Origin: Calditrichaceae bacterium
Lineage (GTDB): Bacteria > Calditrichota > Calditrichia > Calditrichales > JBFXGD01
Direction: 5' to 3'
Length of the DNA: 64,000 nucleotides
Assembly (NCBI GenBank): GCA_050173015.1
Contig: JBFXLE010000006.1
Coordinates: 1-64,000, forward strand
Below the pieces are notes generated by a model. The model did no database searches. It saw only the letters and a program-made list of their open reading frames with translations, and was not told where the DNA came from. The position numbers were made by a program, and so were the translations under genes. Positions 6,575 to 32,322 of this stretch are shown here, piece after piece. Position 1 is the stretch's first letter. Each line of letters starts with the position of its first letter.

Positions 6575-6706
6575 CTTCCGACTCCCTAATCTTGTCTGAT
6601 TACAGATGAGACGCCTTATATCATCGCGTCTTCCTGAAAATTTTGATAGAAACAACAGGAGACCCAAATTATTACAGTTTGGACCTCTATTTACCCGAGG
6701 CGATTA

Positions 6707-9653: not shown

Positions 9654-9773
9654 GTCAATGTCTCCTTTTTATCACGCTAACGGACAGTGTTGACCGGCGC
9701 CCTTCAAAAAATTAAATATTTAAGATATAAGAGGCGGGTTGGTGTGAAGAAGATGGTCGTTTCCGGCTTATTG

Positions 9774-14249: not shown

Positions 14250-14447
14250 TAGAAACTCCGTTCTCGTCATCAAAAATTTTATATTAAAAAAATATGCAAA
14301 CAAACTTCTAATACAAATATCACGATTATCTTGATATCTCACAAACATCTTTAGGGTAAATAAGCATGTCATCTTAACCCTTACCCGTTATTAAAAAAGT
14401 AAATCGTTGAAAATAATATTGACAGGAAATAATTGGGAGAACGCAAC

Positions 14448-14864: not shown

Positions 14865-14898
14865 AATGGATCCTTTATTGTTAAAAATTAAACAAATT

Positions 14899-15512: not shown

Positions 15513-15720
15513 ATGCAAATCCTGTAAGAATTCTTTTCATACTTTTATCAAAATTAATTAAAATAGTTCCCTGAAATCGTGACGCGTGTAACTTTATTTT
15601 TTAGGCATCGCCGGGATACTTTTTTTTGTTGTTCAAAACTATTTTGATGCTAAAGTTTACACCGATAAAGCGGTACCTATATAAGTGGGGGGGGTACTTC
15701 AAAGACCCGCGCGCGGGGCT

Positions 15721-15909
15721 CTGAGCCCGGACGTTGACTCTCTGAGCTCCAATCGTGACTCTTTTTGCTCCGGCATTGCCTCTTTTTGCCTCAATCGCCG
15801 GGTTCGGAGCTCCGATGTTGACTCTCCGAGCCCCAAATTTGACTCTCAGAGCTCAAAACTTCAATCTCTGAGCTCGGGTGTTGGTCCTTTTTGCTCCAGT
15901 CGCGGAAGA
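15721..15909 (+). repeat. Degenerate tandem array of ~9 x 21-bp units
   Basis: CTGAGCCCGGACGTTGACTCT / CTGAGCTCCAATCGTGACTCT / TTTTGCTCCGGCATTGCCTCT / ... / CGGAGCTCCGATGTTGACTCT / CCGAGCCCCAAATTTGACTCT / CAGAGCTCAAAACTTCAATCT / CTGAGCTCGGGTGTTGGTCCT. Confidence 0.85.
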
Positions 15910-16020
15910 GTATTCGTTTCCGTGTGTTTTGGATCAAAAAGATAATAATTTTTTTATAGTAACCTATAAATGTGTTTCGTATTTTTAAGGTTAATAATTT
16001 AATCAACACGGACTGTTATA

Positions 16021-18615
16021 ATGAATCTTATCTCGAAGATTAAACCGAAATCACTTTTCTATTCTCTTAATCATTTGGAAACTGTCAATGAATATCAGGC
16101 GTACCGGCAGGTTTTTTACGCCAAGGAGATTGTTGATCTTTACGCCAATTTTGTCTTTTATAATAAGTTGTTTGATGAAGAGAATTGGAGCGAAAACATC
16201 ACCGCGAGTTTGAACTTTCGTGATTATATGATAACGAAAGAAATCAAAAGCTTTGAAGCGCCTTTGAATGTTTCAAAAGATGACAATATCGCGGTCGCTT
16301 CCTTTAAAATAATTGAAGATTGTAAACCGGATGAATGGCATCCCGGGGAATATTCCTGTGAAGTTGTTTATGAAGATGAAGTATTGATCTCGGATAAATT
16401 TTACATCGATGACGTGCATACTCAAAAATTTAAGCCGGAATCATTTTGCGAAATTTCATCACTTAAACTTTTTACCGCCGGTTCGGAAGCCGAAGAATCA
16501 GATGATCGGAGAGTGTATTTGTCCCGGTTCTTTTTCAAATCCACCAGATATATTTGGGCGGAACTTGAGATCATCAATCTTCTGCCGCAAACCTGGCAGG
16601 GGGAGTTTGTCTTTAGTTTTTACAATGATATAAGAGAGCTGGTGAGACAGGAACGGGTTATCGCCACGATCGATCATGAAGACCCAAAGAGCGTCAACAT
16701 CATCATGGCGGGCGCGGGTTCCGATACGGAAATCACCTGGGCAGAAGATAATTATACCATCGAAATCGTTTTCTTAAACGAACTGATCGCTTCCGCCTTT
16801 TTCGAAGTTGGCGATACCAATTCAAGCAGCTCCCTGAAAACCTATATTCCCTCAAAAGAAAATCTTTCATCGAAAAGAGTTACAAAGATCGGCGGCGAGG
16901 CTCAAATTTTTGCTGAAATTGATAATCTGGTGGGGCTGCATCATATCAAACAAAAACTGCATGACCATTTTGGCTATGTCAAATATCTGAAGCTCAGGAA
17001 AGAAAAAGGTTTGAGTCCGCTGGAAGATATCAACCTGAATTTTGTATTCGCGGGCAATCCCGGGACAGGTAAAACCAAGGTGGCTCAGTTACTGGGTAAA
17101 ATTTACAGAGAGCTTGGTTTGCTTTCAAAAAACACCGTATATGAGGTTGACAGATCGGATCTTGTGGGACGATATGTGGGTGATACCGCTCCCCTTACCA
17201 AAGAAGTCATCGAAAAAGCGCGCGGCGGGATATTATTTATCGATGAGGCATATGCCTTGTGGCGAGATGATGATAAGGATTTTGGGCGCGAATCAATTGA
17301 AATCCTGGTCAAAGAACTCTCTGACGGGCCGGGAGATCTGGCGGTGATCGTCGCGGGCTACCCGAAAGAAATGAAAGATTTTCTGGAATCTAACACGGGT
17401 TTGAAATCCCGTTTTAATTTTACCTTTGAGTTTCCCGACTATACACCGGATGAACTCATGTCAATCGCGAAGTTAATGATTGCCGGGAAATCATTATTTA
17501 TGACCGGTAAGGCTGAAGAAATTCTTTATAAAATGGTTGTCGAAGAATACAGGAAACGGGACAAACATTTTGGAAACGCGCGATTTATTAATTCAGTCAT
17601 TGAAGAAGCTCAGGTAAATCTTGGCCTGCGTATTGTAAGGTCAGGCGCGGCGGGCGATTTTTCCAATACTGAATTATCAACGGTAACAGAAGATGACATC
17701 AGCAGAATCAAACAAAGTGAAGGTTCAAAATTTGTAGATCTTCCCATCAATGAAGAGTTGTTGAAAGATGCCTTAAACAGACTTAACAAGCTTGTCGGAC
17801 TGGAAAATGTTAAAAATAAGATTCGCGAGCTTGTAAAATTGGCCCGGTTCTATAAAGAGAGCCAAAAGGCTTTGCTAAACTCCCTGTCACTGCATAATGT
17901 TTTTATCGGTAATCCGGGAACGGGCAAAACCACCATTGCCAGGATTATCGCGGATATTTACAAGGCATTAGGGCTGCTGGAACGCGGACATCTGGTGGAG
18001 TGTTCGCGTGATTCCCTGGTCGCCGGATATGTCGGCCAGACGGCTTTGCAAACCAGATCCATGCTTGAAGAATCGGTGGGAGGGGTTTTGTTTATCGATG
18101 AAGCGTATTCTCTCACCCAGGGGAACGGCGCAAATGATTTTGGGCATGAAGCCATCGAAGTGATTCTAAAATTTATGGAAGATAACAGAGGCGCGTTCGG
18201 TATAATTGCCGCTGGTTACACTCAGGAGATGATAAAATTTCTTGAGACCAATCCCGGCTTACGCTCTCGGTTTGATAATATTATTGAGTTCGATGATTTG
18301 TCCGCAAGCGATCTGCTATTGGTTGCTGAGAAAATGCTTGCCGAACAAAACATGAAATTTGAAAAAAAAGCAAAAACGCATCTTCAGAAATTTTTTGAAT
18401 TCCATTACGCGGAACGGGATAAGTTTTTTGGAAACGCCCGGTTTGTCAGAAAGGTGGTTGACAGCGCTATTCGCAATCAACATCTGCGTTTGTCTGAGAT
18501 GACGCCGGATAAACGAGGTGATAAAACTATAAAAACCATCACATTTGATGATGTTGATGACTTTCTTCCGGAAAAAGATTTTGTCACCAGAAACAGGAGA
18601 AAAATAGGTTTTTAA
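16021..18615 (+). CDS. AAA+ ATPase with two CbbX/SpoVK/EccA-type modules and a duplicated beta-rich N-terminal region
   Basis: Two copies each of GNPGTGKT, LV..YVG.T pore loop, LFIDEAY, GL.SRF and FGNARF; ends in RKIGF. Confidence 0.92.
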   Translation: MNLISKIKPKSLFYSLNHLETVNEYQAYRQVFYAKEIVDLYANFVFYNKLFDEENWSENITASLNFRDYMITKEIKSFEAPLNVSKDDNIAVASFKIIEDCKPDEWHPGEYSCEVVYEDEVLISDKFYIDDVHTQKFKPESFCEISSLKLFTAGSEAEESDDRRVYLSRFFFKSTRYIWAELEIINLLPQTWQGEFVFSFYNDIRELVRQERVIATIDHEDPKSVNIIMAGAGSDTEITWAEDNYTIEIVFLNELIASAFFEVGDTNSSSSLKTYIPSKENLSSKRVTKIGGEAQIFAEIDNLVGLHHIKQKLHDHFGYVKYLKLRKEKGLSPLEDINLNFVFAGNPGTGKTKVAQLLGKIYRELGLLSKNTVYEVDRSDLVGRYVGDTAPLTKEVIEKARGGILFIDEAYALWRDDDKDFGRESIEILVKELSDGPGDLAVIVAGYPKEMKDFLESNTGLKSRFNFTFEFPDYTPDELMSIAKLMIAGKSLFMTGKAEEILYKMVVEEYRKRDKHFGNARFINSVIEEAQVNLGLRIVRSGAAGDFSNTELSTVTEDDISRIKQSEGSKFVDLPINEELLKDALNRLNKLVGLENVKNKIRELVKLARFYKESQKALLNSLSLHNVFIGNPGTGKTTIARIIADIYKALGLLERGHLVECSRDSLVAGYVGQTALQTRSMLEESVGGVLFIDEAYSLTQGNGANDFGHEAIEVILKFMEDNRGAFGIIAAGYTQEMIKFLETNPGLRSRFDNIIEFDDLSASDLLLVAEKMLAEQNMKFEKKAKTHLQKFFEFHYAERDKFFGNARFVRKVVDSAIRNQHLRLSEMTPDKRGDKTIKTITFDDVDDFLPEKDFVTRNRRKIGF

Positions 18616-18686
18616 ATAAATTCTGCTATTCACAACGAAGCGGCCTGTTATTCATAGCTCTTCGTTAAAACTCAACAGGAAGACAA

Positions 18687-20420
18687 ATGAAAATTCGTGA
18701 TTTAGAATGGTGGATTGTCGGAGTATTGGGTATCATCGCTTTTTTTCTTGCCATGATAGGTTTTAATATCATGTTTACCCATGCCGGTATTGAAAGAAAC
18801 ATGTTGGATCTTGCTTTCCAGTCAATGAAAATCTTCGGGATGGAATTTGTAGATGAATTCGCGTCTCCTCTTCCGATTCAGCTCGAAATCGCCAGGTGGC
18901 TGGCTCCGCTGGTGGTGCTGTACACCGCGGCAAAAGCGGTCATTTATTTTGTCCGGAGAGAATTTAGGTCACTGCTTATTAAATTTAATCATGACCATAT
19001 TATTATTACATCTCTGAATGACAAATCAAGATACTTAATTAATGATTTATTGGCAAAGAACGAAAGGGTAATTGTAGTCGCCTCTATTGATTCTCCGAGA
19101 AAGCTGGATCTCATTGAAAAAGACGGTGCCATATTAATAGAAGGCAGTATATCGGATCAGAGATTTCTTAAAAATATCGCGGCGCATAAAGCAAAGTATA
19201 TGATGTTTATCGAGGAAAATGATGAGAAAAACATTTCATCGGCTATTTCGGTCTATCAATATCTCGAAAAAAATGGTAAAGACAAAATACAAACATTGTT
19301 TGTGCATGTGGCCGATGATCTAAAGTTAAATGAGCTCAAAGAGCTGAACTTTTTTGAAGAGTTTGCAAGCGGGACAAATATCAAAGAAGTGTGTGATATC
19401 CGAATTTTCTCGATGAATGAACGAACTTCGCGGATACTGTTCAATAAATATTCGCCCGATATATTTACACCCGTACACAGTCCTGATGCCAAACAGTTGC
19501 ATGTGGCGTTGTTCGGATCGAATGATTTAACTCAAAGCATGGTCATACGGCTCGCGAGATTGGGCTGGTACGCGAATCTCAAGAATCTAAAAATTACTCT
19601 TTTCCATGAAGGTGACCGGATTGTAAATAAACTAAAAAATAGCTTTCCGGCCATCAATCAACTGATAGATCTTGATTTGATCGACGCTCCCTTAGATATG
19701 TTTGATATCAAGACATTTGACAGCATACACAGCAAACATCCCTTTTCGTCGGTATATATCCTTTGTAAAGATGATACGCTTTCCTCCTATATTTTAAACA
19801 AGCTTTCAAAAACAAAGTCCGAAAATAAAATGGACGTCATCCTTGGTCTGATGAATCCGGACGGAATATTGAATAAATGGTACACCGGAAAAATGCTGGA
19901 AAAAATAAATCTTCATAAATTTAATCTAATTGAAGAATCGTTCACCAAAAACGCCATTATCTCCGAAGAAATTGATAAACTCGCGATGATTATACATCAG
20001 GATTATTTAAGCAAACTGAAGAAAAGAGATCCCGCGAAACTTTCTCACCGGGACTGGGGCTCCCTGCCTGTGGATTTTAAAAATCAAAATCGCGAACAAG
20101 CCGATCATTTATATGTTAAGCTGAGGGCGATGAATTGTGAAGCCCTGCCGCCCGACGGGGAAAAGGGAAAACCTGTCTCAATTTCGAATAATTCACCGTT
20201 TATGGAACTGCTCGCGGAGATGGAGCATGACAGATGGCAGGCGCATATGCTCCTGAACGGTTGGACGTATAACAAATCCCGCGATGATTTGAAAAAATAT
20301 CACACCGATCTCGTTCCATACAATCAGCTAAGCGAAGAAGTAAAGGACTGGGATCGCAATGCCATCGGAAATATACCTGTATTACTTTCTAAGTTAGGAC
20401 TGGTAATAAGGGAAATTTAA
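18687..20420 (+). CDS. 2TM channel-like protein with RCK/TrkA-N-like domains and a C-terminal RyR domain
   Basis: TM1, pore-like helix, TM2 (LEIARWLAP), Rossmann-like HIIIT...LIEG.ISD..FL, and RyR motifs LAMIIHQDY, W.SLP...K.QNR.QADH...KL, LAEMEHDRW...NGW.Y, H.DLVPY..L.EE.K.WD. Confidence 0.85.
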   Translation: MKIRDLEWWIVGVLGIIAFFLAMIGFNIMFTHAGIERNMLDLAFQSMKIFGMEFVDEFASPLPIQLEIARWLAPLVVLYTAAKAVIYFVRREFRSLLIKFNHDHIIITSLNDKSRYLINDLLAKNERVIVVASIDSPRKLDLIEKDGAILIEGSISDQRFLKNIAAHKAKYMMFIEENDEKNISSAISVYQYLEKNGKDKIQTLFVHVADDLKLNELKELNFFEEFASGTNIKEVCDIRIFSMNERTSRILFNKYSPDIFTPVHSPDAKQLHVALFGSNDLTQSMVIRLARLGWYANLKNLKITLFHEGDRIVNKLKNSFPAINQLIDLDLIDAPLDMFDIKTFDSIHSKHPFSSVYILCKDDTLSSYILNKLSKTKSENKMDVILGLMNPDGILNKWYTGKMLEKINLHKFNLIEESFTKNAIISEEIDKLAMIIHQDYLSKLKKRDPAKLSHRDWGSLPVDFKNQNREQADHLYVKLRAMNCEALPPDGEKGKPVSISNNSPFMELLAEMEHDRWQAHMLLNGWTYNKSRDDLKKYHTDLVPYNQLSEEVKDWDRNAIGNIPVLLSKLGLVIREI

Positions 20421-20438
20421 TCAGGGAGGATGTGAACG

Positions 20439-23400
20439 ATGGAAAAATCAATCTTTAATCTATACAAAAACAGAGAAGTCAGAGTATTTATCTCTTCCAC
20501 CTTCCGTGACATGATGGCCGAGCGGGAATATCTTGTAAAAAAAGTATTCCCGGAGCTTCGAAAAAAATACTTGGATCGGGGAGTGACCATTACGGAGATA
20601 GATTTACGCTGGGGTGTTCTCGAGGAAGAAGCGGAAAATGGAAAAGTAATCGATATCTGTCTCACGGAGATTGATAACAGCCGCCCCTACTTTATAGGCA
20701 TCCTCGGTGAAAGATACGGCTGGATCCCCGATCACTCGGAATATGAAAAACATAAAAAAATAATCGAAAACTTCAGTTGGGTGGTAAAGGACATTGAGAG
20801 CAACTTAAGCATCACTGAAATGGAAATTCAGTATGGCGTTATAAGAAATCCGGAGATGATTGAAAGATCGGCGTTTTTTCTGCGGGACAGTCATAACGAA
20901 TCTTCAGTCGCTTATAGAGAAACACCCGGTTCCGAAGAAGAAAAGAAGCTTAAAATCCTGAAAAATTTAATTGAGAACAACCGGGAAATAGAGAGTTCCG
21001 CATTTAATGACGTCGCTGAATTGGGGAAAAGAGTATTTGAACATCTTAGCAGGATTATTGAAGCGGATTTTCCACTTCTTGATGAGCAGACAAAAAAGAT
21101 TTTACCGCAGCTCAATTTTATCAACGCGCGGCGAAAAGTATATATCAGAGAAGAAAAATATTTTAATTTAATAACCGACCATGTCGAAAGATCATCTTCA
21201 CCCATCGTCATAACGGGGAAAACCGGCGCGGGGGCGTCATCACTTCTCGCGAATTACCTTGTGGAGCATGCTGAAAAAAATCCGGATGATTTATTGCTTT
21301 ATAATTTTAGTAACGCTTCGGAAAATTCATCAAATCACATCCGGGTGCTCAAGCGATTTTGTGAGGAACTGTCCGGGGGAGAAATCAAGTTAGATGAGAT
21401 TGACGAAAACAGCAGCGAACAGCTAAAAAATTATCTGGATGAATTGCTTGAGCAAAAAGCACCGCAAAAAGTTCTGATTGTTATTGACGGCCTGGATGAA
21501 TTTGATAATGATGATAATTCACTTCTGTTGAATTGGCTGCCGTATAGTTTCGATGATAACGTAAAGATCATTTTGTCCTGCGGCGCGGGCGCTTCGCTGG
21601 AGAGACTAAAGAAGAGAAGATATGAAGTGGTTTATATCACCGAACCGGGCAAAGAAACCAGAGAAAAATTTATTAATGATTATCTTTCGGAATACAGCAA
21701 AAAATTACCGTTGAAGTATGTGAATGAGATTGTTAATGATGATATTTCTGAACTACCCCTGACCCTAAAATCTTTTCTCGATGAATTGCGGCAGTTCGGC
21801 CTGCATGAAGAACTGGACAATCAGATAAAATATTATACTACCGCCAATGGGCCGGTTGAATTCTTTGACAGAATTCTGAAGCGTCTGGAAACGGATTTTG
21901 AAGACAGTCAAAAAGGCCTAATTGAAGATATTTTTACACTTCTGTACACGTCAAAAACAGGATTAACGGAGACGGAGATACTTGAAATACTCGAAATCCC
22001 ACCTCTTTACTGGACACCTGTTTATAACGCCATTGAGAGCAATATTCTGAATCTGAACGGACAGCTGCGGATCGGGCATAAGTATCTGTCCGACGCGGTC
22101 AAACAACGTTATTTAAAATCTTCTGAAAACCAGAAAAAAATAAGCGGAAAGATCATCAATTATTTTATCGAAGATATCCGTGACTCACGGGCGGTTCAGG
22201 AAGTGGCGCACCAGTATATGTCATTGGGAAATAAAAAAGGGTTGTACGATTTTCTTTCGGCTATGGAAACGGTGATCAGTATTTTTGTCAGCCGGGATAA
22301 TGAGTTATTGTTGTCACAATACTGGGCCTGGTTATATCCCGAATTTAATCCGGGGGACATCTATTCACCGGTTCAGATCATAAAATTTATCGAAGCCAAA
22401 GAATATAATTTTAAAGAAGCTATCACGGTTATTACGGTATTCGGGTTGCTGTTTAAAAACCTGGGAATTTTGGATGTTGCCCAAGATTATTTTGAAACCG
22501 TTTATGTGTGGAGCAAAAAAAAGCTTGATGAAAGCGATGATCTCATAAGATCTTCACTGGCCCGTCTTGTAATAACAAATCTTGATTTAAACAAAATAGA
22601 ACCGGCGGAAAAATACGCAAGAGAAGCGGTCTCCCTTTGTGATAAATATCTTGCCAAAGAAGACAGTAATTATATCGCGGCTTATTCCAATCTCGGATTG
22701 GTTTTGTCCGCAAAAGAAAAATATTCCGATGCCATTGAAATATACAAGGGACTCCTGGATACAATTGATAAGGATAAAACAAAGACAGATAAGGCGAAGC
22801 TGAGTATTCTCAATAATCTCGCAACGGCCTATTTTAATAATAATCTGATTGATGAATCAATTAAGATTTCTAAGGAGATCATCCGTACCGGTGAGGAGAT
22901 GTATGGCTCAGATCATGCCGAAAACATTATTCCGCTTAGCAATTTAGCTTTTATTTATTCTCAGATCGGTAAACATAAGGAAGCGCATGAATATTTTAAC
23001 AAAAGTATTGAGATCTGCACAAAAACGTATGGAGAATCGCATCCGGAAACCATAAGCATCCTGTTCAATTTTATCGGCGTGCTTCTTTCCGATGGGAATT
23101 ATGATCTGGCGGGTTCATATTTAGATAATATCGAAACGATTCTGAAGCGGGAAAATATAAAAGGCGAAAAATTCGGTCAGCTGCTGCATTTGCGGGCACA
23201 ATTGTATAATTCAAAGGATGACTCCAAAAAAGCGATTAGCTTTGAAAAAGAGGCATTAAAAATATTCACGGAAGAATTTGGTATTGACCACAAAAATACG
23301 ATAAACAGTCTTCAAAATCTTTCCGGATATTATTTGGAAGCTGATCAACTTGCTGAAGCTGAAGAGATAATCAGAAACACCGAAAATATTCTGCTGGATA

Positions 23401-25820
23401 AATCCGGGGAAAAGGATGTTCGTCTCGCTGAAGTGTATAACTTATATGGCGGATTGTACAAAAAAAAGGGAGAATTAGAATTAGCCGAAGAATATTTGGG
23501 TAAAGGCCTGGAATTAAGAATTGATATTCTTGGTGAAACGCATAAGGATACCATCAAGAATTTTCAAAATTATGCCGTAATCTTAATTACAAATAATAAA
23601 GCGGATCAGGCGAAGAAGGTTGTTGAGTATAATTTAAAATTAAGCGAGGACAGGTTTGGAAAAGATTCAATAAGATATTGTGAAAGCCTGGAATTGATGA
23701 ATGAGATTCTATCCAGGCAAAAAGAATTTGACGCGCTCGAATCAAATTTACTGCATATCTATGAATTTTACGGGAAAACCTATGGGCAAAATCACCGGAG
23801 CACCTATAACACTCTGATCAGGCTTATTAATGTAAAAAAAGAGTTGGGACATAAAGAGCAGGTTTTGGCAATTACTCCGAAAGCGATTGAAATTGCCGAA
23901 AATATTTGGGATGAAGATGATATCAATTATCAAAATTTGCTTTTAGATACCGGTATGAATTTCTCCAATTTAAAAGAGTATGATAAGGCCATCACATTAT
24001 TCAATAAATTATACAAAATACAAATCAGAAATTTCGGCAAACTTGACAGCCGGACCTTACTGACTTTTAATAACATAGCAGGGGCTAAAAAACTAAGCGG
24101 CGACATGGATGGCGCCAGGCGCGATTATGAAGAATTGATTGATTCAATCGGGAAAAGCAAGACTCCGTACAATGACGAAATACTAACCTGTTTCAGTAAC
24201 TATGCCAGAATTAACTATGAACTCGGGGATCTGGATAAAGCGGAAACAAACTACCGAAGTTGTTTTGAGAATGCATTGAAGATTCATGGTTTTACGCATG
24301 AGACCACCCTGGACCATTTATATTATTTAGGGCAATTTTATATTAATACGGATCGTCATGATAAGGCCGAGACCTTATATAGAAGCTATATGGAAAACCT
24401 GACATCAACAGATGAAAAAACAGAAAAAGCGCTCATCGAAGTATTAAAAATGTTGCTCAACCTGATTACACCCAGAAGGGATCATGAAGCGCTTGAGCCG
24501 CTGTTGATCAAGCGCGCCGGATTGTCCAAAAAAATTTATGGGATAAACTCTGTCCAAACCGTAAGAGTTTTACTCGTTCTTTCCGTTAATTATCAGCTTA
24601 AAAAAGATTATCAAAACAGTGTCGCTATTCTCAACAGGATAGCGAGAGAATGTGAACCGGAAACGCTTTATGGTTCAGGTGATGAATATGTCTCGATATA
24701 CAATGATTTAATCTCATTCTATAATGAATCGAATTCTGAGAAAAAGGAAGAAGCGCCCGTTGATGAAAGCTGGAAAGAAAAAACGGATCAAAATAAAAAA
24801 CTAATTGAACAAGCGGAAAGCGAAGGCGAGCACCGCCGGATATTGGAAATATTGGCGGATAATATCGAACTGTACGAAACGCATCAGGGGCCTGAACATC
24901 CTGATACGGTCTTTTGTAAGCGTGATTACGCGAATAAACTCATGGAGATTGACCAGTTTGAATACGCGAACAAAATTCTTGAGGAAGTCCTGCGCATATT
25001 AAAAAACACTTTGGGCGTTAATCATGTGGAATATACTTTAACGCTCTATTCACTTGCCAAAGCACAAAAAGGGCTGGGTAAATTTGACGATGCTCTCACG
25101 GGTTTGAAAAAAGTGAAAGATCAGGTTGCCGCGGGTCTGGAAAGCAATCACCCGTTTTTGTATGAGATCAACAAAAAAATTGCCGACACCTATTTTGTGA
25201 TGTTTAAAAATGAAGAGGCGTTAAAGGCATTTGATACTCTTTTGAAATCGGTTTCTGAAGACAATGGAGTGGAGAGGGCATATATCATACTGCAGATCGG
25301 ACAATTATATATACGGCTGGAAATGTATGATGATGCTATAAAATATCTGGGCGAAGCAGAACAATTTTATGACAGTCAGTTTAAAGAAAATAATCCTTAT
25401 TCAATAATGATTCCGGATCTGATGGCCTTTATATATTGGAAAAAAGAGGAGCTTGACGCCGCGGAAAAGTATTATTGCCGGGCGGTGGACAACGCCGGAA
25501 AAATGCTCCCGCCCGAACATCCGGCGTATATAAAAACCATAAAAACGATCGCGCTTTTTTATTTTAACAATAATAGATTCAGCGAATCATTGACCTATCA
25601 CAATGAATTGTTGAATAATTATATTCAGACTTATTCCGGGAAAGATCAAATTGTTGTCGAACAAAAATTAACCGTCGCGCTGATATATCATAATCTGGAG
25701 ATGCATAGAGAAGCGGTTGGTTTGTTAAAGGAAGCCATCGATGCCGAACCGGAAGTTTTATCGGAAAACGCTCAAAAGATGATGATGAATTTGTATAATT
25801 TTTATTCGAAAGGTGATTGA
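20439..25820 (+). CDS. DUF4062 (TIR-like) - STAND/NACHT-like NTPase - long TPR array (nephrocystin-3-like architecture)
   Basis: RVFISSTFRDM..ERE.L....FPEL, IDLRWGV, CL.EID..RPYFIGILGERYGW, SITEMEI.YG (DUF4062). P-loop GKTGAGAS, Walker B LIVIDGLDE. Many G..H..T TPR units. Confidence 0.9.
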   Translation: MEKSIFNLYKNREVRVFISSTFRDMMAEREYLVKKVFPELRKKYLDRGVTITEIDLRWGVLEEEAENGKVIDICLTEIDNSRPYFIGILGERYGWIPDHSEYEKHKKIIENFSWVVKDIESNLSITEMEIQYGVIRNPEMIERSAFFLRDSHNESSVAYRETPGSEEEKKLKILKNLIENNREIESSAFNDVAELGKRVFEHLSRIIEADFPLLDEQTKKILPQLNFINARRKVYIREEKYFNLITDHVERSSSPIVITGKTGAGASSLLANYLVEHAEKNPDDLLLYNFSNASENSSNHIRVLKRFCEELSGGEIKLDEIDENSSEQLKNYLDELLEQKAPQKVLIVIDGLDEFDNDDNSLLLNWLPYSFDDNVKIILSCGAGASLERLKKRRYEVVYITEPGKETREKFINDYLSEYSKKLPLKYVNEIVNDDISELPLTLKSFLDELRQFGLHEELDNQIKYYTTANGPVEFFDRILKRLETDFEDSQKGLIEDIFTLLYTSKTGLTETEILEILEIPPLYWTPVYNAIESNILNLNGQLRIGHKYLSDAVKQRYLKSSENQKKISGKIINYFIEDIRDSRAVQEVAHQYMSLGNKKGLYDFLSAMETVISIFVSRDNELLLSQYWAWLYPEFNPGDIYSPVQIIKFIEAKEYNFKEAITVITVFGLLFKNLGILDVAQDYFETVYVWSKKKLDESDDLIRSSLARLVITNLDLNKIEPAEKYAREAVSLCDKYLAKEDSNYIAAYSNLGLVLSAKEKYSDAIEIYKGLLDTIDKDKTKTDKAKLSILNNLATAYFNNNLIDESIKISKEIIRTGEEMYGSDHAENIIPLSNLAFIYSQIGKHKEAHEYFNKSIEICTKTYGESHPETISILFNFIGVLLSDGNYDLAGSYLDNIETILKRENIKGEKFGQLLHLRAQLYNSKDDSKKAISFEKEALKIFTEEFGIDHKNTINSLQNLSGYYLEADQLAEAEEIIRNTENILLDKSGEKDVRLAEVYNLYGGLYKKKGELELAEEYLGKGLELRIDILGETHKDTIKNFQNYAVILITNNKADQAKKVVEYNLKLSEDRFGKDSIRYCESLELMNEILSRQKEFDALESNLLHIYEFYGKTYGQNHRSTYNTLIRLINVKKELGHKEQVLAITPKAIEIAENIWDEDDINYQNLLLDTGMNFSNLKEYDKAITLFNKLYKIQIRNFGKLDSRTLLTFNNIAGAKKLSGDMDGARRDYEELIDSIGKSKTPYNDEILTCFSNYARINYELGDLDKAETNYRSCFENALKIHGFTHETTLDHLYYLGQFYINTDRHDKAETLYRSYMENLTSTDEKTEKALIEVLKMLLNLITPRRDHEALEPLLIKRAGLSKKIYGINSVQTVRVLLVLSVNYQLKKDYQNSVAILNRIARECEPETLYGSGDEYVSIYNDLISFYNESNSEKKEEAPVDESWKEKTDQNKKLIEQAESEGEHRRILEILADNIELYETHQGPEHPDTVFCKRDYANKLMEIDQFEYANKILEEVLRILKNTLGVNHVEYTLTLYSLAKAQKGLGKFDDALTGLKKVKDQVAAGLESNHPFLYEINKKIADTYFVMFKNEEALKAFDTLLKSVSEDNGVERAYIILQIGQLYIRLEMYDDAIKYLGEAEQFYDSQFKENNPYSIMIPDLMAFIYWKKEELDAAEKYYCRAVDNAGKMLPPEHPAYIKTIKTIALFYFNNNRFSESLTYHNELLNNYIQTYSGKDQIVVEQKLTVALIYHNLEMHREAVGLLKEAIDAEPEVLSENAQKMMMNLYNFYSKGD

Positions 25821-25851
25821 GTATTCGGTTAAAAAATACTCGTAAACTATT

Positions 25852-28791
25852 ATGCCAGAGAATATTGACAAGACAATACGCATTGATGATTCAGATTCGG
25901 AAACTAAGCCGGATAATACCATCCGGATAGACGAGAGCAGCCCGCGGGAGGTGGATCAGACGATTAGAATGGATTATGATTCAGTCATTAAATCCGGTCT
26001 GGGCGGGGGTATTTCGGCAAAGGCAAGCCGGCATAATTTGTATGAATTGAACGGTAAAGAATTCCGTGTATTAAGAAAAATTTCTGAATCCACTTCCGAG
26101 GCTCAAATATTTTTAGTCGAAAGAGAGGGAGAACAGTATATTCTTAAATATTATTATCCCTTCATCAAACCCAAGCAGGAAGTAATCCATAAATTAAGGT
26201 CTTTGTCACATCCGGATATCATCTCCGTTTTGGATTTTGGCTATCATGATGAGCGGTTTTTTGAGATATTGACTTACGCTGATCAGGGGTCACTTGCTGA
26301 CCATATCCCGATCAAAAATATCAAAAAAATTAAGAAGTATGTGACGGAAATTTCAAACGCCTTAAAATTTTGTCATGACAACGGGATCATTCATCGGGAT
26401 ATAAAACCTTCAAACATATTCCTGAAGGATAAAAGTAAAAACGATGTGCTTGTGGGTGATTTCGGGATCGCGTCGATTGTCAGTGATGGCGAAGAATTAA
26501 GAAGGACAACCACCTTCCAGACGCCGGTGTACGCGGCGCCGGAATTTAAATTATCGTTAAGGGGCGAAACGATCATCACTAAAGCGGTTGATTATTACGC
26601 GCTCGGGATATCCGTCTGGGAGATGTACAGCGGGGTCATACCGCCGGACGGAATGGATGATCTGGAATTTCTGCGTGAAATGTTTGAGGGTGAACCCCCT
26701 CTGCCGGCAGATATGAATGAGGAAATTGCCAATCTCATCAAGGGATTAACGGTTCGGAATTATAAAAAAAGATGGGGATATGAGGAAGTCGGCAAATGGC
26801 TGAAAGGTGAATATGTTGAAATACATACCGAAATTAACGATGAATCCGGGGCTGTATTCGATTTCGGTGAGGATGATAAGGGAAAGACGCTTGTCGCCGG
26901 CAATCCGCAGGAATTAGCCAAACTGATTTATCGGTATCCCGATTTAGGGAGAAAGCATCTATACCGGGGCACCATAAAAGACTGGCTGAAAAAAACCGGT
27001 AATCAAAGATTGTTGATTGAAGTTGCTGATATCACCGAATATATTTATAAGGATGATGAGAAAACTGGTACAAATTACGCGGTATATATTCTTGATAAAA
27101 ACTTTCCGTTTTATTCACTTTCCAATAAACCGCTCAGAACAAAAAAGGAACTGGTTGATGAATTAAGACTAAACTGGAAAGTTTACACACCGGAACTTAA
27201 GGATCCCAATCATAAATTATATCTGTATCTTCAGTCAAAAATCGCGCGTGATGATGTCGAAAAATTTAGAGAATGCTATAAACAAAAAAAAGATGAATAC
27301 GCATTCTATAACATACTGTACACTCTTGAGTTTTCCTATGACAAGAATGCTCCGTTCGCTATCTTTACAAGGGGGGTTCTAAAAACACTCATTAGATCAC
27401 TGGAAGAATTATCCGGGTATTTTTTGAAAAATTGTTCAACAAGAAAGTCATTGTTTCTCAGCGCCGATTTCTGGGTTTGGCTTGAGTTCAAAGACCGGGA
27501 AATAGTATCCACCCTTCAAGAACTATTCAAAGAAGAAGACGGAGCGAGTAAAAATCTTCTTGGCCAGCTGCCTTATCTGATTTCACCGGATTCAGGGTAT
27601 AAAGGATTAAAGGGGAATGAAATATTTCCTTTTCAGGATTTCGGTAAAGAATTCTATGAAAATTTTGAAGCGTATAAAAAGATATTCAAGAATGAGGAAA
27701 GCGAGATATTTTATTATCTAAAGTCGAAAAACCTACCCGGTGAGATATCTTTTATACAAAAATGTTTTAATCCCGACAACAAGCCGACTCCATTTAATGA
27801 AAATCTGGCGATGATTAAAATCATCAAGGGATTTGAGTATGATTTGCCTTATGTGAATAAGAGTGATTACTTTTTTTCCCCCGATGAATTAATGGCCTCT
27901 CTGAAAGGCTCTTCCAGGATTAAAGAGGAACTATCGGATCAGGCTTCCTTTCTAAACATGTGGTTATCTGTGTTTTTCCACGAACAGCCGCTAAGTGATG
28001 ACAGAAAATTTTACATCTATTACCGGGATGATTTTGATAAACAGCTTGAAAAATATTTAGTTTTTATCAAAAAACTTCACAAAAAAAATGAAATTTCCGG
28101 GCGGTATGAAACCGCGAAGAATAAAGTAAAAAGTATCCAGAATAAATACAGCGGGATTGGCTCAAACCGGACGATAAAAAATATTTTCTATTATGGCTTG
28201 CCCTTGATTCCGGCTGTTTTGCTGGTATTATATTCGATATTTGCGGACGATAATCCACTGCCTTCAAATATCTTTAACGTGAGTCAGTGGTATTTTTTAC
28301 CGGTTGCTATTCTGGTAACAGGTTATTTGTTCAAAATCATGCATGATAATAATGAAATGGAATTGAGCACCGGATGTGTTGGCGGACCGGTGCTCGGATT
28401 AATTGTCGCGGTGATCATATATTATGTTTTTCTTGTTATCCTATCCGTTCCTTTACTGCTGGTGATAACTTTGGGAATCGCGTTTTATTTCTTATTCAAA
28501 AAATTGTACTATCTGATAAATGAGTATTCGGAAGCCCTGAATATTGAGAAATCCTATGTGGATATGGATGGCATTAATGATCTGGTTTATTCATACACTT
28601 TTAAGAAAAGAAATGAAATATCCATTTATGAATCTGAAGGATTAAAAGAAGCGCATAGCTATACAAAATCAACAAGGCTAAGAGTCTGGGCAACAGTTTT
28701 AATACCGACATTAGTTCTTGCCGCGATCGTGTTATTGCTTGTTTATTATAGCCCGGAATTAAACTTATTAAAAATATTAAAAGGTCAGTGA
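25852..28791 (+). CDS. Hanks-type Ser/Thr kinase with N-terminal Thr repeats and C-terminal TM helices
   Basis: ILKYY, HPDI, HRDIKPSNIF, DFG, TPVYAAPE, DYYALG; several hydrophobic helices near the C-terminus. Confidence 0.92.
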   Translation: MPENIDKTIRIDDSDSETKPDNTIRIDESSPREVDQTIRMDYDSVIKSGLGGGISAKASRHNLYELNGKEFRVLRKISESTSEAQIFLVEREGEQYILKYYYPFIKPKQEVIHKLRSLSHPDIISVLDFGYHDERFFEILTYADQGSLADHIPIKNIKKIKKYVTEISNALKFCHDNGIIHRDIKPSNIFLKDKSKNDVLVGDFGIASIVSDGEELRRTTTFQTPVYAAPEFKLSLRGETIITKAVDYYALGISVWEMYSGVIPPDGMDDLEFLREMFEGEPPLPADMNEEIANLIKGLTVRNYKKRWGYEEVGKWLKGEYVEIHTEINDESGAVFDFGEDDKGKTLVAGNPQELAKLIYRYPDLGRKHLYRGTIKDWLKKTGNQRLLIEVADITEYIYKDDEKTGTNYAVYILDKNFPFYSLSNKPLRTKKELVDELRLNWKVYTPELKDPNHKLYLYLQSKIARDDVEKFRECYKQKKDEYAFYNILYTLEFSYDKNAPFAIFTRGVLKTLIRSLEELSGYFLKNCSTRKSLFLSADFWVWLEFKDREIVSTLQELFKEEDGASKNLLGQLPYLISPDSGYKGLKGNEIFPFQDFGKEFYENFEAYKKIFKNEESEIFYYLKSKNLPGEISFIQKCFNPDNKPTPFNENLAMIKIIKGFEYDLPYVNKSDYFFSPDELMASLKGSSRIKEELSDQASFLNMWLSVFFHEQPLSDDRKFYIYYRDDFDKQLEKYLVFIKKLHKKNEISGRYETAKNKVKSIQNKYSGIGSNRTIKNIFYYGLPLIPAVLLVLYSIFADDNPLPSNIFNVSQWYFLPVAILVTGYLFKIMHDNNEMELSTGCVGGPVLGLIVAVIIYYVFLVILSVPLLLVITLGIAFYFLFKKLYYLINEYSEALNIEKSYVDMDGINDLVYSYTFKKRNEISIYESEGLKEAHSYTKSTRLRVWATVLIPTLVLAAIVLLLVYYSPELNLLKILKGQ

Positions 28792-31295
28792 TGTCGTTAG
28801 TCTGCAGTAAATGTAAAGCCGAGAACCGAGCCAGCGCTAAATATTGCAAAGCTTGCGGTAGAGCGATTAAAAAGCAAATTGATTCCTGCTTAGAGGATGT
28901 CATTGGTCGGGATGATATAAAAGCGACTTTGGACCGGGTTGTTAAGTCAATCACCCAATTCAAAAAGGGCTGGAACGGCGAAGTCGAATTTAATAAAAAT
29001 ATGATTATTACCGGAAACCCGGGCACCGGAAAAACGAGTTTGGTTCATTCGATCGCCAATATGTTTTTTAATGAAAACATAACCGCTAAAGGGAAGCCTG
29101 TTATTGTTGACGCTTCAGAGTTCGAACAATTTATTTCTGATATCGAAACTGAATATGCAAAAGCAAAGGACGGAATTCTGTTTATTGATAATTTTCATAA
29201 ATTGGTTGACGGTACCAATAATTTGGGTCCTGTTAATGTTGATAAACTGGTCTACAAAATGGGACAGGATGGCGCCAATCCAATCGTTATTGTTGCCGGA
29301 AATCAATCAGAAATCGATAACTATTTTATGAATAACGCGTCGGCAAAAAACCGGTTTGAACACATTTTTAAACTATATGATTTTACTTCCGCCGAACTGT
29401 ATAATATTTGTAAACAGCGCATTGAAAAAGTGGGATTGCGGTTAAACGAGAAATCGGCGAATAAACTTTCATGGTTATTTAAATATAAAGTTAAGACAAA
29501 AGACGCCACGTTTGGAAACGCTCACTATGCCTTAAACGTTGCCGAAGATATTACTTTAGCCTACTATCATCGAATTTCATTCGGAGCCAAAGATGATAAG
29601 ATCATTGTTGACGCGGATATAACAGAAAATGTGCCAAAACAGAAAACATTAAACGAAATATTTTCTGAACTCGACTCATATATTGGATTGGAAAAAGTTA
29701 AAGCCGCGATTCGTGACATTGCTCAACAAATAAAAAATCAACGGAAATTAGAGGCCAAAGGTAATAAAGAAAACCTGCATTTTGGATTTCACATGGTGCT
29801 CACCGGTAATCCCGGCACCGGTAAAACGATGATTGTTCGGAAACTGGGAGAAGTTCTCTCGGCGATCAATTATCTTGACCGCGGCCATGTGGTTGAGGTG
29901 GATAAAAGTAAGCTGGTTGGCCAGTTTATCGGATCGACTCCTCAGATCGTCCAAAAAAAATGCGATGAGGCCATGGGTGGAATACTTTTTATCGATGAAG
30001 CCTATGCGTTGGCTCCTAAAGCGGGAAACTCGAATCAGTTTGGACAGGAAGCAATTGATACCCTGCTTAAACGAATGGAAGATGATAGGGACAAATTTGT
30101 TGTTGTCGCCGCCGGATACAGAAATGAGATGCAGCATTTTATCAACGCCAATCCCGGACTGAGAAGCAGATTTGACAGATTCATTCATCTTGAAGATTAC
30201 AAACCCGATGAGCTTGTTGAGATATTTAAATTCCTGTTAAACAATACTAATTACACGATGTCACCGGAGGCAAACGCGAAGCTCCCGGAAGTCATCAACG
30301 CACTTTATGAAAAAAGAGAAAAAATTTTCGGTAACGGCAGAGAAGTACGAAAATTGTTGGAAGAAACAATCATAAACTTATCTGGAAGAGTTTCCTGTCT
30401 TAGCCATCAGGAGCAGACATACGAAGCAATCACCCAAATACAGCCGATTGACTTTCCGATACAGATAGATAAGAATGATAATCTTGATGATATATTTAAA
30501 GAGTTGAATTCCCTGGTCGGGCTGCAAAACATTAAGAGTGAGTTTGAAAAATTAGTCGCTTATATCCGGGTAGAGAAGAAGCGAAAGGAGCTGGGCGGTG
30601 AATACCGCGGCTTAAGCAGCCACTTTGTATTTATGGGAAATCCCGGTACCGGAAAAACAACGGTAGCGAGGTTGCTCGGCAAAATATTCAAGTCGCTCGG
30701 ACTTCTGTCAAAAGGGCATCTCGTTGAGGTTGACAGGTCAGGACTTGTGGCGCAGTATGTCGGTCAAACATCCGCCAAAACCAATGAAGTGATTGATTCA
30801 GCGATGGGTGGCGTGCTTTTTATTGATGAAGCATATTCCTTAATCGTCAATGAATCAAAAAACGATTTTGGTCAACAGGCGATCCAGACTTTACTAAAAA
30901 GAATGGAAGATGATGCTGATCGGTTTGTGGTTATCGCGGCAGGTTATCCCGATGAAATGGATCAACTGATAAACTCGAATCCAGGACTGAATTCGCGATT
31001 TAAAAAGAAAATACAATTCCCTGATTATAATCCGGATGAACTTTTTAAGATTTTTAAACTAATGATGGATAAAAAAGAATTGCGCCTGACGGATGAAGCG
31101 GTTGAAAAAGCAAAGAATTTATTTGTTCAATTATATGAATCACGGGGGGAAAATTTTGGAAACGGGCGAACGGTCAGAAATATTTTTGAAGCAACCTTAG
31201 AAAATCAAAGTTTTAGGGTCGCGCGCTTATTAAACTCACCCGATTTGGAAAAAGATACACTATATAGGATTGAAGCGGAGGATATTCGGTTTTGA
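28788..31295 (+). CDS. Zn-ribbon plus three CbbX/SpoVK-type AAA+ modules (first degenerate)
   Basis: CSKC...CKACG; three GNPGTGKT; Walker B LFIDNFH, LFIDEAY, LFIDEAY; FGNA/FGNGR. Start overlaps the kinase stop (GTGA). Confidence 0.92.
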   Translation: MMSLVCSKCKAENRASAKYCKACGRAIKKQIDSCLEDVIGRDDIKATLDRVVKSITQFKKGWNGEVEFNKNMIITGNPGTGKTSLVHSIANMFFNENITAKGKPVIVDASEFEQFISDIETEYAKAKDGILFIDNFHKLVDGTNNLGPVNVDKLVYKMGQDGANPIVIVAGNQSEIDNYFMNNASAKNRFEHIFKLYDFTSAELYNICKQRIEKVGLRLNEKSANKLSWLFKYKVKTKDATFGNAHYALNVAEDITLAYYHRISFGAKDDKIIVDADITENVPKQKTLNEIFSELDSYIGLEKVKAAIRDIAQQIKNQRKLEAKGNKENLHFGFHMVLTGNPGTGKTMIVRKLGEVLSAINYLDRGHVVEVDKSKLVGQFIGSTPQIVQKKCDEAMGGILFIDEAYALAPKAGNSNQFGQEAIDTLLKRMEDDRDKFVVVAAGYRNEMQHFINANPGLRSRFDRFIHLEDYKPDELVEIFKFLLNNTNYTMSPEANAKLPEVINALYEKREKIFGNGREVRKLLEETIINLSGRVSCLSHQEQTYEAITQIQPIDFPIQIDKNDNLDDIFKELNSLVGLQNIKSEFEKLVAYIRVEKKRKELGGEYRGLSSHFVFMGNPGTGKTTVARLLGKIFKSLGLLSKGHLVEVDRSGLVAQYVGQTSAKTNEVIDSAMGGVLFIDEAYSLIVNESKNDFGQQAIQTLLKRMEDDADRFVVIAAGYPDEMDQLINSNPGLNSRFKKKIQFPDYNPDELFKIFKLMMDKKELRLTDEAVEKAKNLFVQLYESRGENFGNGRTVRNIFEATLENQSFRVARLLNSPDLEKDTLYRIEAEDIRF

Positions 31296-31825
31296 TTTGT
31301 CCATATTGTTTAAAGGATATTGACGATGATGCCGCATACTGCGATCAATGCGGCGGAGAGTTGTTTGTCTGTCCGGTATGCGGAAAAACAGGCAGGCAAA
31401 TCGTTTGTGAAGATGATCATGTAAAATATGTTTCGGTAAGCGGTAACAAGAAGTTCGCGACAGAAAACTTCTTTAGAACAGAAAGACTAGAGAAAGTACC
31501 GTCACCGAATTTAAGCAACGATATTCCCGGACTCATTTTGACCAACAAAAAGATCGGAATTGAGCTCAAATTAGTAAACAATGATATCATAGGAAGGAGA
31601 AGTGATAAATTTTCCGGTATCTTAGGGAATTATAAACAGATATCAGGCAGCCATGCCAGAGTGAATTTTAGTTCAGATAGCGGATGGAGTATCACCGATT
31701 TAAATTCATCGAACGGCACAACATATCAAGATAAAAAGTTGATCCCGTTTCAATCGGTAAAGTTACAAAACGAAACATTTATCATTCTCGCGAATATTGA
31801 GTTTTATATTCTAATTAAAAATTAA
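31292..31825 (+). CDS. Double Zn-ribbon plus FHA-domain protein
   Basis: CPYC..CDQCG..CPVCG; FHA residues GR, SGSHA, DLNSSNGT. Start overlaps the upstream stop (TTGA). Confidence 0.9.
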   Translation: MICPYCLKDIDDDAAYCDQCGGELFVCPVCGKTGRQIVCEDDHVKYVSVSGNKKFATENFFRTERLEKVPSPNLSNDIPGLILTNKKIGIELKLVNNDIIGRRSDKFSGILGNYKQISGSHARVNFSSDSGWSITDLNSSNGTTYQDKKLIPFQSVKLQNETFIILANIEFYILIKN

Positions 31826-31971
31826 ATTTCGGTCTGCCCAAAAGGTATGGTTCTTTCCGGTTTTTGTATGACGTGACTGTAAGCGCGACAAAGGATGATA
31901 ATCCTGTGATTGTTACTTTTAAATCACAAAGATCGCAAACCGAAGGACCGGCGTGGGAGTGAACGGGTTAT

Positions 31972-32199
31972 CTATTTTGATGAAGGCTCTTTTGACGACT
32001 GTTCTTCCTGTTTCTTCCCGGCCTTTGTCTCGACTATCTGAATAACGGCTTTTTTCCTGTCATTGTCATAGAATGAATCGGTGGCGCCCAACATGGTGGT
32101 GGTGAGACTGCCTCCCCCTCTTCTTAATCTCCGGGAAATAATGATAAAAATGGATATCACGGCAATCAGGGAAAACAGAATCAGTAATAATTCTATCAT
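31972..32199 (-). CDS. Small single-TM protein
   Basis: Hydrophobic N-terminal helix followed by RRLRR. Confidence 0.6.
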   Translation of the reverse strand: MIELLLILFSLIAVISIFIIISRRLRRGGGSLTTTMLGATDSFYDNDRKKAVIQIVETKAGKKQEEQSSKEPSSK

Positions 32200-32322
32200 A
32201 TTCTTCTCGCCGAATCTATCATACAGAATCATATATATTTAAAGATCATTTCGCGCTGATCAACTTCAGAATGAGCAATCAATGTCCTGATCTATCCGTA
32301 CGACCCAGCTTGCTCAAACTTT

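Follow-up and report, generated by a model that had tools for sequence, protein, structure and literature searches.

A cluster of six genes, here called g1 to g6, lies on a stretch of DNA from a Calditrichaceae bacterium (contig JBFXLE010000006.1, positions 1 to 64,000 of the forward strand; this whole 64,000-nucleotide stretch is called the window). The second and third genes of the cluster are probably an undescribed phage-defence pair. The gene g2 (18687-20420, plus strand) encodes a channel-like membrane protein of 577 amino acids with RCK lobes and a RyR domain. The gene g3 (20439-25820, plus strand) encodes a DUF4062(NIR)-STAND-TPR protein of 1793 amino acids. The reading that is somewhat favoured by the comparison of loci is a Thoeris-like or Avs-like two-gene defence pair, in which the channel would be gated by a product derived from nicotinamide adenine dinucleotide (NAD) or by the loss of NAD. 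The locus as a whole appears to be a composite, in which g2 and g3 form the core, g1 is optional, and g4, g5, and g6 are a joined module. What appears to be new here is the combination of an Avs-like NIR sensor with a Thoeris-like membrane effector that carries a RyR receiver domain; each kind is known separately.

Evidence for the pair is provided by the neighbours of g2 relatives in other genomes. Relatives were collected as six loci from genome contigs and 80 of 90 loci from metagenome contigs, and the loci were clustered by channel protein at 80% identity. Neighbours were identified by calling open reading frames (ORFs) and searching them with segments of the g1-g6 proteins. TIR and NIR neighbours were found with purpose-built hidden Markov models made from Pfam-checked sequences, with a Pfam check on subsets. 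In the close clade of g2 (47-95% identical), a TIR or NIR gene is directly adjacent to the channel gene in 12 of 16 clusters and only nearby in two. As for the two remaining clusters, the sequence of L008 does not extend downstream, and in L020 the 1.7 kb that follows is free of TIR or NIR. The distant full-length clade (19-30% identical) has such a gene directly adjacent in 9 of its 23 clusters and only nearby in two. Other architectures, with RCK2-RyR or RyR only, form an internal control within the same scan, and none of their 17 clusters has a TIR or NIR gene either adjacent or nearby.

The partner gene in the close clade encodes a DUF4062- or TIR-STAND protein and lies downstream on the same strand, with a gap of -13 to 104 nucleotides. 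Partners in the distant clade are mostly TIR_2/ThsB_TIR-WD40 proteins of about 1100 residues, and once a TIR-RHS protein; the P-loop pattern G....GK[ST] was not found in these WD40 and RHS partners. TIR_2/ThsB_TIR partners occur in L004, L017, L036, L042, L052, L053, L059, and L079. In L004 and L017, DUF4062 is replaced by TIR_2 at the head of the partner and the channel is kept, and the sensor part of the partner interchanges among TPR, WD40, and RHS. Because the head interchanges next to a constant channel, the arrangement fits a shared NAD chemistry and not one fixed protein contact. Two loci even have double sensors, namely a TIR-STAND plus an NIR-STAND protein in L017, and an NIR-STAND-TPR plus an NIR-STAND-WD40 protein in L021.

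Judged from these neighbourhoods, g2-g3 is the conserved core of the locus. An earlier note on this DNA had proposed a unit made up of a channel-like membrane protein and a TPR-STAND sensor whose head is TIR-like. The comparative loci bear this out, and the fold and tetramer models described below back the channel. When the neighbourhood comparison that the note had called for was made, the g2-g3 pair recurred, while the six genes divided into separable parts.

The pair can be found without its neighbours in the window. In L006, g2-g3 is a bare insert: a pseudouridine synthase gene borders it at one end, and at the other come a class II aminoacyl-tRNA synthetase gene and then sigma-54. The closest relative, a Calditrichaceae metagenome-assembled genome, has the same gene order and a g2 that is 92% identical. 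The patchy distribution that the earlier note had expected was also found. Among 41 relatives, g2 is present in two, its own genome and one of the same genus. Among 401 sampled Bacteroidota genomes, 11 have g2 matches (E<=1e-10), five of them near full-length, and the only close match is in the sample's centre genome. Relatives about 60% identical to g2 occur in Chlorobiota, Bacteroidales, Marinilabiliales, and Melioribacteraceae. The channel family is not a small one: when clustered at 50% identity, 727 groups match with E<=1e-30. In plasmid and phage collections, g2 matches are confined to short RyR-domain stretches that cover 10-33% of g2. This distribution fits horizontal spread of g2-g3 as a patchy accessory unit.

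Two further proteins were seen near channel homologues. A multi-transmembrane-like protein of 657-709 residues is encoded directly downstream of distant channel homologues (L027:9616-11646, L029:9662-11791, L031:9538-11634, L032:9713-11686, L052:6357-8417, and L088:9701-11785). Its copies are 31-57% identical, the one copy searched matched no Pfam family, and in that sub-clade the protein may act as a third component. On the strand opposite the channel, a protein of ~370 residues with a weak TIR-profile match (E 1e-6 to 1e-7) is encoded in three loci. It is found at L014:9933-11042, L030:4778-5887, and L016:2395-2928 (all minus strand; the last is cut short).

The sensor protein g3 combines an N-terminal effector, a central STAND nucleoside triphosphatase (NTPase), and C-terminal repeats in one protein, which is the tripartite plan of Avs-like proteins. 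Pfam finds DUF4062 (2.8e-15; amino acids 15-100), NPHP3_N/NACHT (251-418), and TPR_12 (2.1e-78; 11 stretches). The domain bounds are 12-169 for DUF4062/NIR, about 234-420 for the STAND NTPase, and about 723-1793 for the TPR array. DUF4062 is a TIR-like NADase yielding ADP-ribose and nicotinamide, according to the available parts of 2026 preprints (including 10.64898/2026.09.04.749371), which place it in Pseudomonas Avs2, Swarozyc, Vulcan, Vesta, Evangelion, and TEP1. In g3 the domain resembles that of human TEP1, whose NIR crystal chain 11gz_A it matches at E 8.5e-27, the S-I/V-T-E-M-E motif included. One glutamate of this motif (E129 in g3, in TEME) is present in all 14 of the partner NIR domains compared. 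The catalytic residue of TEP1 is given as E1008 in the available text, and E129 is a candidate for the corresponding residue.

In the STAND module, the Walker B motif is VIDGLDE. The Walker A motif reads GKTGAGAS (window 21216-21242, amino acids 260-268), so that alanine replaces lysine. The same replacement is found in L003, L009, and L011, and the canonical G..G.GK[ST] motif in 11 other partner STAND modules. The alanine suggests either non-canonical NTP binding or reliance on another ATPase.

By its domain composition, g3 alone belongs to an already described kind of protein. The Pseudomonas chlororaphis Avs2 with an NIR head has the same DUF4062-STAND-TPR layout and the same conserved glutamate, as far as the available part of its preprint describes it (10.64898/2026.09.04.749371). 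Unlike NIR-type Avs2, g3 has no Walker A lysine and matches no Avs model. When compared with PADLOC-DB v2.0.0 (2023), it matched only mad8 (E 4.5e-4). The known NIR-type Avs2, Swarozyc, Vulcan, Vesta, and Evangelion systems, in the parts of the sources at hand, work singly or with other partners, unlike g2-g3. Neither RyR nor TrkA is mentioned in the main text of the preprints on DUF4062 systems (including 10.64898/2026.09.04.749371).

The second protein of the pair, g2, matches TrkA_N (E 1.8e-5) and RyR (E 8.7e-13) in Pfam, and a hydropathy scan finds two N-terminal transmembrane (TM) helices. Its AF2 model, built from a 38-row alignment, has a predicted local distance difference test score (pLDDT) of 88.3 and a predicted template modelling score of 0.82. 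In this model the chain runs from TM1 (amino acids 6-32) through a short helix (39-51) and a loop to TM2 (64-100). Two Rossmann/RCK lobes follow (105-420), and then a helical RyR domain (427-577). The best Foldseek matches in the PDB are tandem-RCK rings and channels, namely CASTOR/DMI1, GsuK, TrkA, and Slo1 (E 8.5e-9 to 1e-6). They cover both RCK lobes, and in GsuK and Slo1 also the pore. The GsuK entries among them carry titles with bound NAD and ADP.

When four copies of amino acids 1-105 of g2 were modelled together, the score was 0.55, compared with 0.00 for the best of three controls. In a calibration that used two copies, 20 of 30 proteins solved as one-chain pairs reached the mark for this score, compared with 1 of 23 single-chain structures. 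The runs have at least 75% contact agreement and a partner pLDDT of at least 77, and the contacts are made by residues 35-71, where the pore helix and the loop lie. This result may owe something to likeness to solved K+ channel tetramers, or to memory of them. With its predicted TM-pore helix-loop-TM topology and cytosolic RCK ring, g2 is a candidate RCK-gated tetrameric channel. It shares the RCK-lobe fold with the tandem-RCK channels GsuK, CASTOR/DMI1, Slo1/BK, and the TrkA ring, at an identity of 8-13%. In contrast to g2, none of these has a RyR domain, and g2 is missing their K+ filter.

The RyR domain of g2 (19965-20417, plus strand) aligns to the repeats of RyR1-3 and to a B. thetaiotaomicron RyR protein (phmmer against the PDB, E 1e-13 to 3.1e-28). 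In Foldseek, the tail of g2 matches RyR3 Repeat12 over 188 columns. Its pocket residues are H514, W517, H539, and D556, and their spacing is identical to that of H75/W78/H100/D117 in RyDEP and H129/W132/H154/D171 in RyR Tad. Among 83 family members, H514, W517, and D556 are kept in 82-83, and H539 in 74. Phage RyR proteins bind 2'/3'-cyclic ADP-ribose (cADPR) and cADPR through the four equivalent residues, and in RyDEP the pair H75 and D117 is the catalytic dyad that cleaves cADPR isomers, according to the accessible parts of the two 2026 preprints (PMC13232231 and 10.64898/2026.06.04.730250 for binding, PMC13232231 for the dyad). Both preprints, in these parts, also remarked on the likeness to animal ryanodine receptors. 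From the kept pocket residues, the RyR domain of g2 is a candidate receiver of a TIR-made signal.

RyDEP and RyR Tad belong to the same Pfam family (PF02026) as the RyR domain of g2. They are small soluble phage anti-defence dimers, which cleave or sponge the signal in the accounts available. In g2, by comparison, a host membrane protein, the RyR domain is joined in one chain with a pore and a pair of RCK lobes. The literature searched contains no host protein that uses a RyR domain as a signal receiver and no host partner that is a RyR channel. Nor does it describe the combination of a RyR domain with TrkA; PF02026 together with TIR appears there only in the RyDEP work, and Thoeris and RyR are linked only by the phage RyDEP and RyR Tad papers.

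These parts suggest a mechanism. The TPR array of g3 would recognise an invader protein, and the STAND module would oligomerise. The DUF4062/NIR heads would then cleave NAD+. The RyR pocket of g2, the RCK pockets, or both may sense the product (ADP-ribose or an isomer in cyclic form) or respond to NAD+ being lost. Finally, the pore of g2, acting as the membrane effector, would open, and the ion leak would arrest growth of the infected cell. What the analysis shows are the gene structure, the domains, the folds, the conserved adjacency, and the conserved residues of pocket and catalytic type. A role in defence, the nature of the signal, the gating step, and cross-talk of any kind with g1 or g4-g6 are inferred. 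A more specific version can be put forward tentatively, as possible and less probable than the general one: an ADP-ribose-type product of the TIR- or DUF4062-headed NLR-like sensor would directly gate the channel through the Repeat12-type RyR domain. If this were true, DUF4062 would be a signal generator as well as a NAD sink. Prokaryotes would also supply a precedent and a tractable model for an idea long debated, namely that cADPR-type molecules act directly on ryanodine receptors.

The closest known counterpart is found among Thoeris systems. In the available parts of Yirmiya et al. (10.64898/2025.12.03.692087), Thoeris is divided into types I-XI, and type X consists of a ThsB TIR protein and an ion-channel effector, ThsK, with a signal that is unknown there. 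The likeness, as far as that description goes, is that a TIR-family NAD-processing protein is encoded beside a membrane or ion-channel effector, and distant g2 relatives adjoin ThsB_TIR/TIR_2 proteins as in Thoeris. Unlike in type X as described there, the enzyme in the window is a DUF4062 on an Avs-like STAND-TPR protein. Since g3 carries DUF4062 (PF13271) and has no TIR Pfam match, the window itself lacks the TIR protein that defines Thoeris. According to the same available parts, Avs TIRs were removed from that screen and PF13271 was not among its TIR Pfams. RyR, TrkA, and RCK are not mentioned in its main text. The earlier note did not recognise the combination as a named system. This stands in so far as PADLOC names no system, while DUF4062-STAND-TPR proteins (as NIR-headed Avs2) and an ion-channel Thoeris (type X) both appear in preprints, by the text available of them.

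If the link between g2 and g3 is functional, Thoeris/Avs-type immunity would gain a new class of effector, and an Avs-like "effector" head would prove able to feed a second effector. A bacterial pair of this kind would also provide a simple test system for the gating of RyR Repeat12 channels by ADP-ribose derivatives.

Several observations weigh against a signal-gated defence pair. The g3 of the window is without the Walker A lysine, which STAND sensors normally need. DUF4062 has so far been reported, in the available parts of the sources, only as a terminal NAD+ depleter, with no cyclic signal reported, so a second effector is not required. There is no TVGYG-type K+ selectivity filter in g2, where the loop reads KIFGMEF and is variable across 38 relatives. 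No TIR or NIR gene was found in the available sequence of 12 of the 23 distant and 2 of the 16 close clusters, several of which have short flanks. The pocket residues of the RyR domain are equally conserved in RyR-RCK proteins without a TIR or NIR neighbour; the pocket is therefore a family trait and no proof of a TIR link, and it may sense an ordinary adenine nucleotide in g2. PADLOC-DB v2.0.0 (the 2023 library), run on the six proteins, names no system and gives domain-level matches only. These are IetA/DolB/TRIP13 for the AAA+ genes and mad6/PD-T4-6 for the kinase, and g2 and g6 have no match of any sort. Lastly, the flanks hold no clear defence island. A single toxin-antitoxin pair lies there amid a metal ATPase, a PLP enzyme, a GreA-like protein, MurA/MurB-type proteins, and another kinase, which does not agree with the proximity to a defence island that the earlier note had looked for.

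The other four genes raise the question of how much of the cluster acts together. All six genes are on the plus strand. The intergenic spacing is 71 nucleotides (g1/g2), 18 (g2/g3), and 31 (g3/g4), and stop and start codons overlap by 4 nucleotides at g4/g5 (GTGA) and g5/g6 (TTGA). The second codon of g5 is an in-frame ATG. The ORF list and the sequence agree with the earlier note on all of these gaps and overlaps, and Pfam confirms the domains that it had named in the six proteins. Its title gave five kinds of protein for the six genes; the kinds are right, with two AAA+ genes (g1 and g5) behind one label.

The gene g4 (25852-28791, plus strand) encodes a membrane Ser/Thr kinase of 979 amino acids (Pfam Pkinase, 7.7e-36). 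The kinase domain, at amino acids ~70-315, has the HRD, DFG, and APE motifs, and a hydropathy scan finds about four TM helices at the C-terminal end (775-965). An unnamed middle domain is common to Bacteroidota kinases of about 1000 residues. The N-terminal tail (amino acids 7-41; window 25870-25974) has three (K/N/Q)-T-I-R-(I/M)-D repeats, and all kinase homologues (L108-L112 and L021) have 2-6 N-tail repeats of the [DE]KT[IV]R type. These KTIR repeats are plausible autophosphorylation sites, or phospho-Thr docking sites for the FHA protein. The gene g5 (28788-31295, plus strand; 835 amino acids) encodes three tandem AAA+ units of the CbbX/SpoVK/EccA type in Pfam. It exceeds the NCBIfam cut-offs for EccA, CbbX, and SpoVK only by the sum over its three domains, and tandem domains inflate such scores. 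The gene g6 (31292-31825, plus strand; 177 amino acids) encodes a Zn-ribbon (3-33) and an FHA domain (100-165; 2.5e-10).

The same trio can be found elsewhere. The C-terminal 649 residues of g4 match six of the 401 Bacteroidota genomes, five of them at full length. Around these five matches 7-20 kb was fetched; L110 ends at a contig end, which leaves four evaluable loci. The order kinase, multi-AAA+, Zn-ribbon-FHA is present in all four (L108, L109, L111, and L112), and none of the genomes with this stand-alone trio is among the g2-matching Bacteroidota genomes. Because the trio recurs in the same order without g2, g4-g5-g6 is a separable module. The AAA+ proteins of the stand-alone trios are giants of 1385-2502 amino acids (L108:4811-8968, L112:13075-17253, L109:12342-19049, and L111:12046-19554), which BLAST tiles as chains of CbbX/SpoVK-type AAA units. 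The trio is flanked upstream by double-zinc-ribbon proteins, and in L108 a PP2C gene follows downstream. Conversely, the C-terminal part of g4 was not found in five of five genomes with g2 relatives, and three of these genomes have the pair in its minimal g2-STAND form. L021 is the only further lineage with the trio kinase after g2-g3. Its order is g1, g2, two STAND genes, and the kinase, inside which the locus ends; g2 there is 47% and the kinase domain 59% identical.

Threonine-phosphorylation circuits with FHA and AAA+ partners are known from type VI secretion (T6SS; PpkA/Fha1/PppA) and type VII secretion (T7SS; EccA). The trio resembles them in having a Ser/Thr kinase, an FHA protein, and an AAA+ protein, with PP2C in L108. 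It differs from them in that the kinase is anchored by C-terminal helices and has KTIR repeats, and secretion genes were not among the scanned neighbours. In the window, T6SS/T7SS-type domains are absent from the 20 neighbouring ORFs scanned with Pfam; the whole genome was not searched for them. Beside the pair, g4-g5-g6 may be a system that simply neighbours it, or may add a layer of regulation to it. The kinase/multi-AAA+/Zn-ribbon-FHA trio is a second uncharacterised module that merits its own study.

The first gene, g1 (16021-18615, plus strand; 864 amino acids), encodes a CbbX/SpoVK/EccA-type AAA+ ATPase. Two beta-sandwich domains (amino acids 1-272) are followed by two AAA plus AAA_lid_6 units in Pfam, both with the Walker A motif GNPGTGKT. 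The AF2 model has a pLDDT of 84.8, and its N-terminal matches are generic and Ig-like (Z ~10). The N-terminal domain occurs in 17 of the 401 Bacteroidota genomes, mostly in proteins of ~870-920 residues. In the ESM Atlas, this domain and the middle domain of g4 match only unnamed clusters, with feature scores of 0.76-0.84, which are leads only. Within ~8 kb of g1-like genes, no TIR or NIR gene was found in any of 12 fetched loci, whose contexts vary. Elsewhere, g1-like genes stand beside g2-g3, upstream of the pair in both L012 and L021 and behind the STAND gene in L018, so that the association is seen in four lineages in all. This pattern suggests a helper that the pair can do without, with g1 having been recruited from an AAA+ family that is widespread and mostly stand-alone.

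Two further observations concern g1. One Marinilabiliales genome has a bare g2-g3 pair (L089/L006, G043:C1) and a g1-like AAA+ gene on another contig (L135, G043:C4). Whether g1 could have split from the long ATPases of the trios was also considered. The AAA pair of g1 is 38-43% similar to every pair in those proteins and 38% to g5, and orthology was not shown.

The strongest competitor to the two-gene pair is a single integrated six-gene system, in which the kinase, the FHA protein, and the two AAA+ proteins would switch, reset, or disassemble the STAND-channel complex. The genes are closely packed, with translational overlaps at g4/g5 and g5/g6, and the divergent L021 shows g1, g2, two STAND genes, and a kinase. 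The g3 of the window, without its Walker A lysine, could depend on outside ATPases, and the KTIR repeats could serve FHA docking. Against these points, the trio is alone in four of four evaluable genomes without g2, most g2-g3 pairs are without the trio, and the C-terminal part of g4 was not found in five genomes with g2 relatives. L012, moreover, has a canonical Walker A motif and nevertheless has g1. Such a system is accordingly considered unlikely. The earlier note had made a kinase-FHA-AAA+ arm an integral part of the complex. That part of its proposal is not supported in the form given, in view of the recurrence of the trio without g2 and of the many pairs without the trio, with L021 as the one other lineage that joins them.

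Next in standing is the explanation that g3 alone defends by NAD+ depletion. The channel-like protein would then be a modulator, either an ADP-ribose buffer or hydrolase or a valve for ion homeostasis. The published DUF4062 systems, in the parts available, are indeed single NADase effectors, and g2 keeps the His/Asp pair that is the catalytic dyad of RyDEP in its preprint, as far as that text was at hand. RyR proteins also occur without TIR neighbours. A pore with a two-RCK ring is nevertheless an odd scaffold for a mere buffer. The pairing moreover persists across two clades that share 22-30% identity, and with TIR, DUF4062, TPR, WD40, and RHS partners, and in Thoeris type X, which has been tested, a TIR protein goes with an ion channel that is named as the effector in the available text. 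These points make g3 acting alone a rather improbable account.

Direct gating by protein contact is another model for the pair. Here the oligomerised STAND protein would dock on the channel ring without any small molecule, and NAD cleavage would be a parallel arm. Many STAND systems activate partners through induced proximity, and this speaks for such a contact. So does the gene order, which is tightly conserved together with its spacing (overlaps down to -13 nucleotides). The free exchange of head, sensor, and P-loop status is hard to square with one docking surface, and the conserved nucleotide pocket of g2 points to a ligand. Direct docking is very unlikely on this evidence.

Least probable of all, by a little, is that the pair is not immune at all and instead uses an NLR-like sensor and a nucleotide-gated channel to respond to some endogenous cue of stress or development, which would agree with the lack of a clear defence island or PADLOC system and with phage and plasmid collections that match the RyR domain only, and which fits poorly with the patchy cross-phylum spread at ~60% identity and the absence from 39 of 40 relatives (both as for a transferred accessory module) and with the proven anti-phage members of both partner domain families, as described in the source parts available.

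Upstream of g1, a short remnant of a repeated element lies at 15388-15461. These 74 nucleotides match the ends of contigs C31 and C32 at 86% and appear to resemble the end of a repeated element, with no support for an insertion sequence (IS) family. The earlier note had called this an IS4 remnant. The repeat-end-like sequence is in keeping with a remnant, while the assignment to IS4 is not supported: two ORF fragments were searched for it without any Pfam match, and the region 14870-16020 contains neither a long ORF nor a Pfam match. Closer to g1, the intergenic DNA at 15600-15900 is of low complexity and rich in repeats, including a 21-nucleotide tandem repeat of 2.7 copies at 15818-15873.

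Promoter-like sites over 14400-32600 number 63, against 54 +/- 7.1 expected. Terminator-like sites in the same range number 26, against 15.9 +/- 4.6 expected, and none is listed on the plus strand between g6 and the next gene. Both counts are uninformative. The guanine-cytosine (GC) content of the cluster is 0.37-0.42, compared with 0.35-0.51 elsewhere in the window, and an island signal is not evident.

Further away, the toxin-antitoxin cassette that the earlier note had placed nearby was found on the minus strand. It is probably a toxin-antitoxin pair, with an HTH_3 (HigA-like) gene at 11960-12301 overlapping a Gp49/HigB-like gene at 12291-12725. A second Ser/Thr kinase, fused to TPR, is encoded 3 kb downstream of the cluster on the opposite strand (35023-37410). 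Two ORFs of 607 and 161 residues between g6 and this kinase match no Pfam family. At 4001-10000 the GC content of the window rises to 0.48-0.51, compared with 0.35-0.44 over most of its length, and a heavy-metal P-type ATPase gene (7224-9653) lies inside this high-GC stretch.

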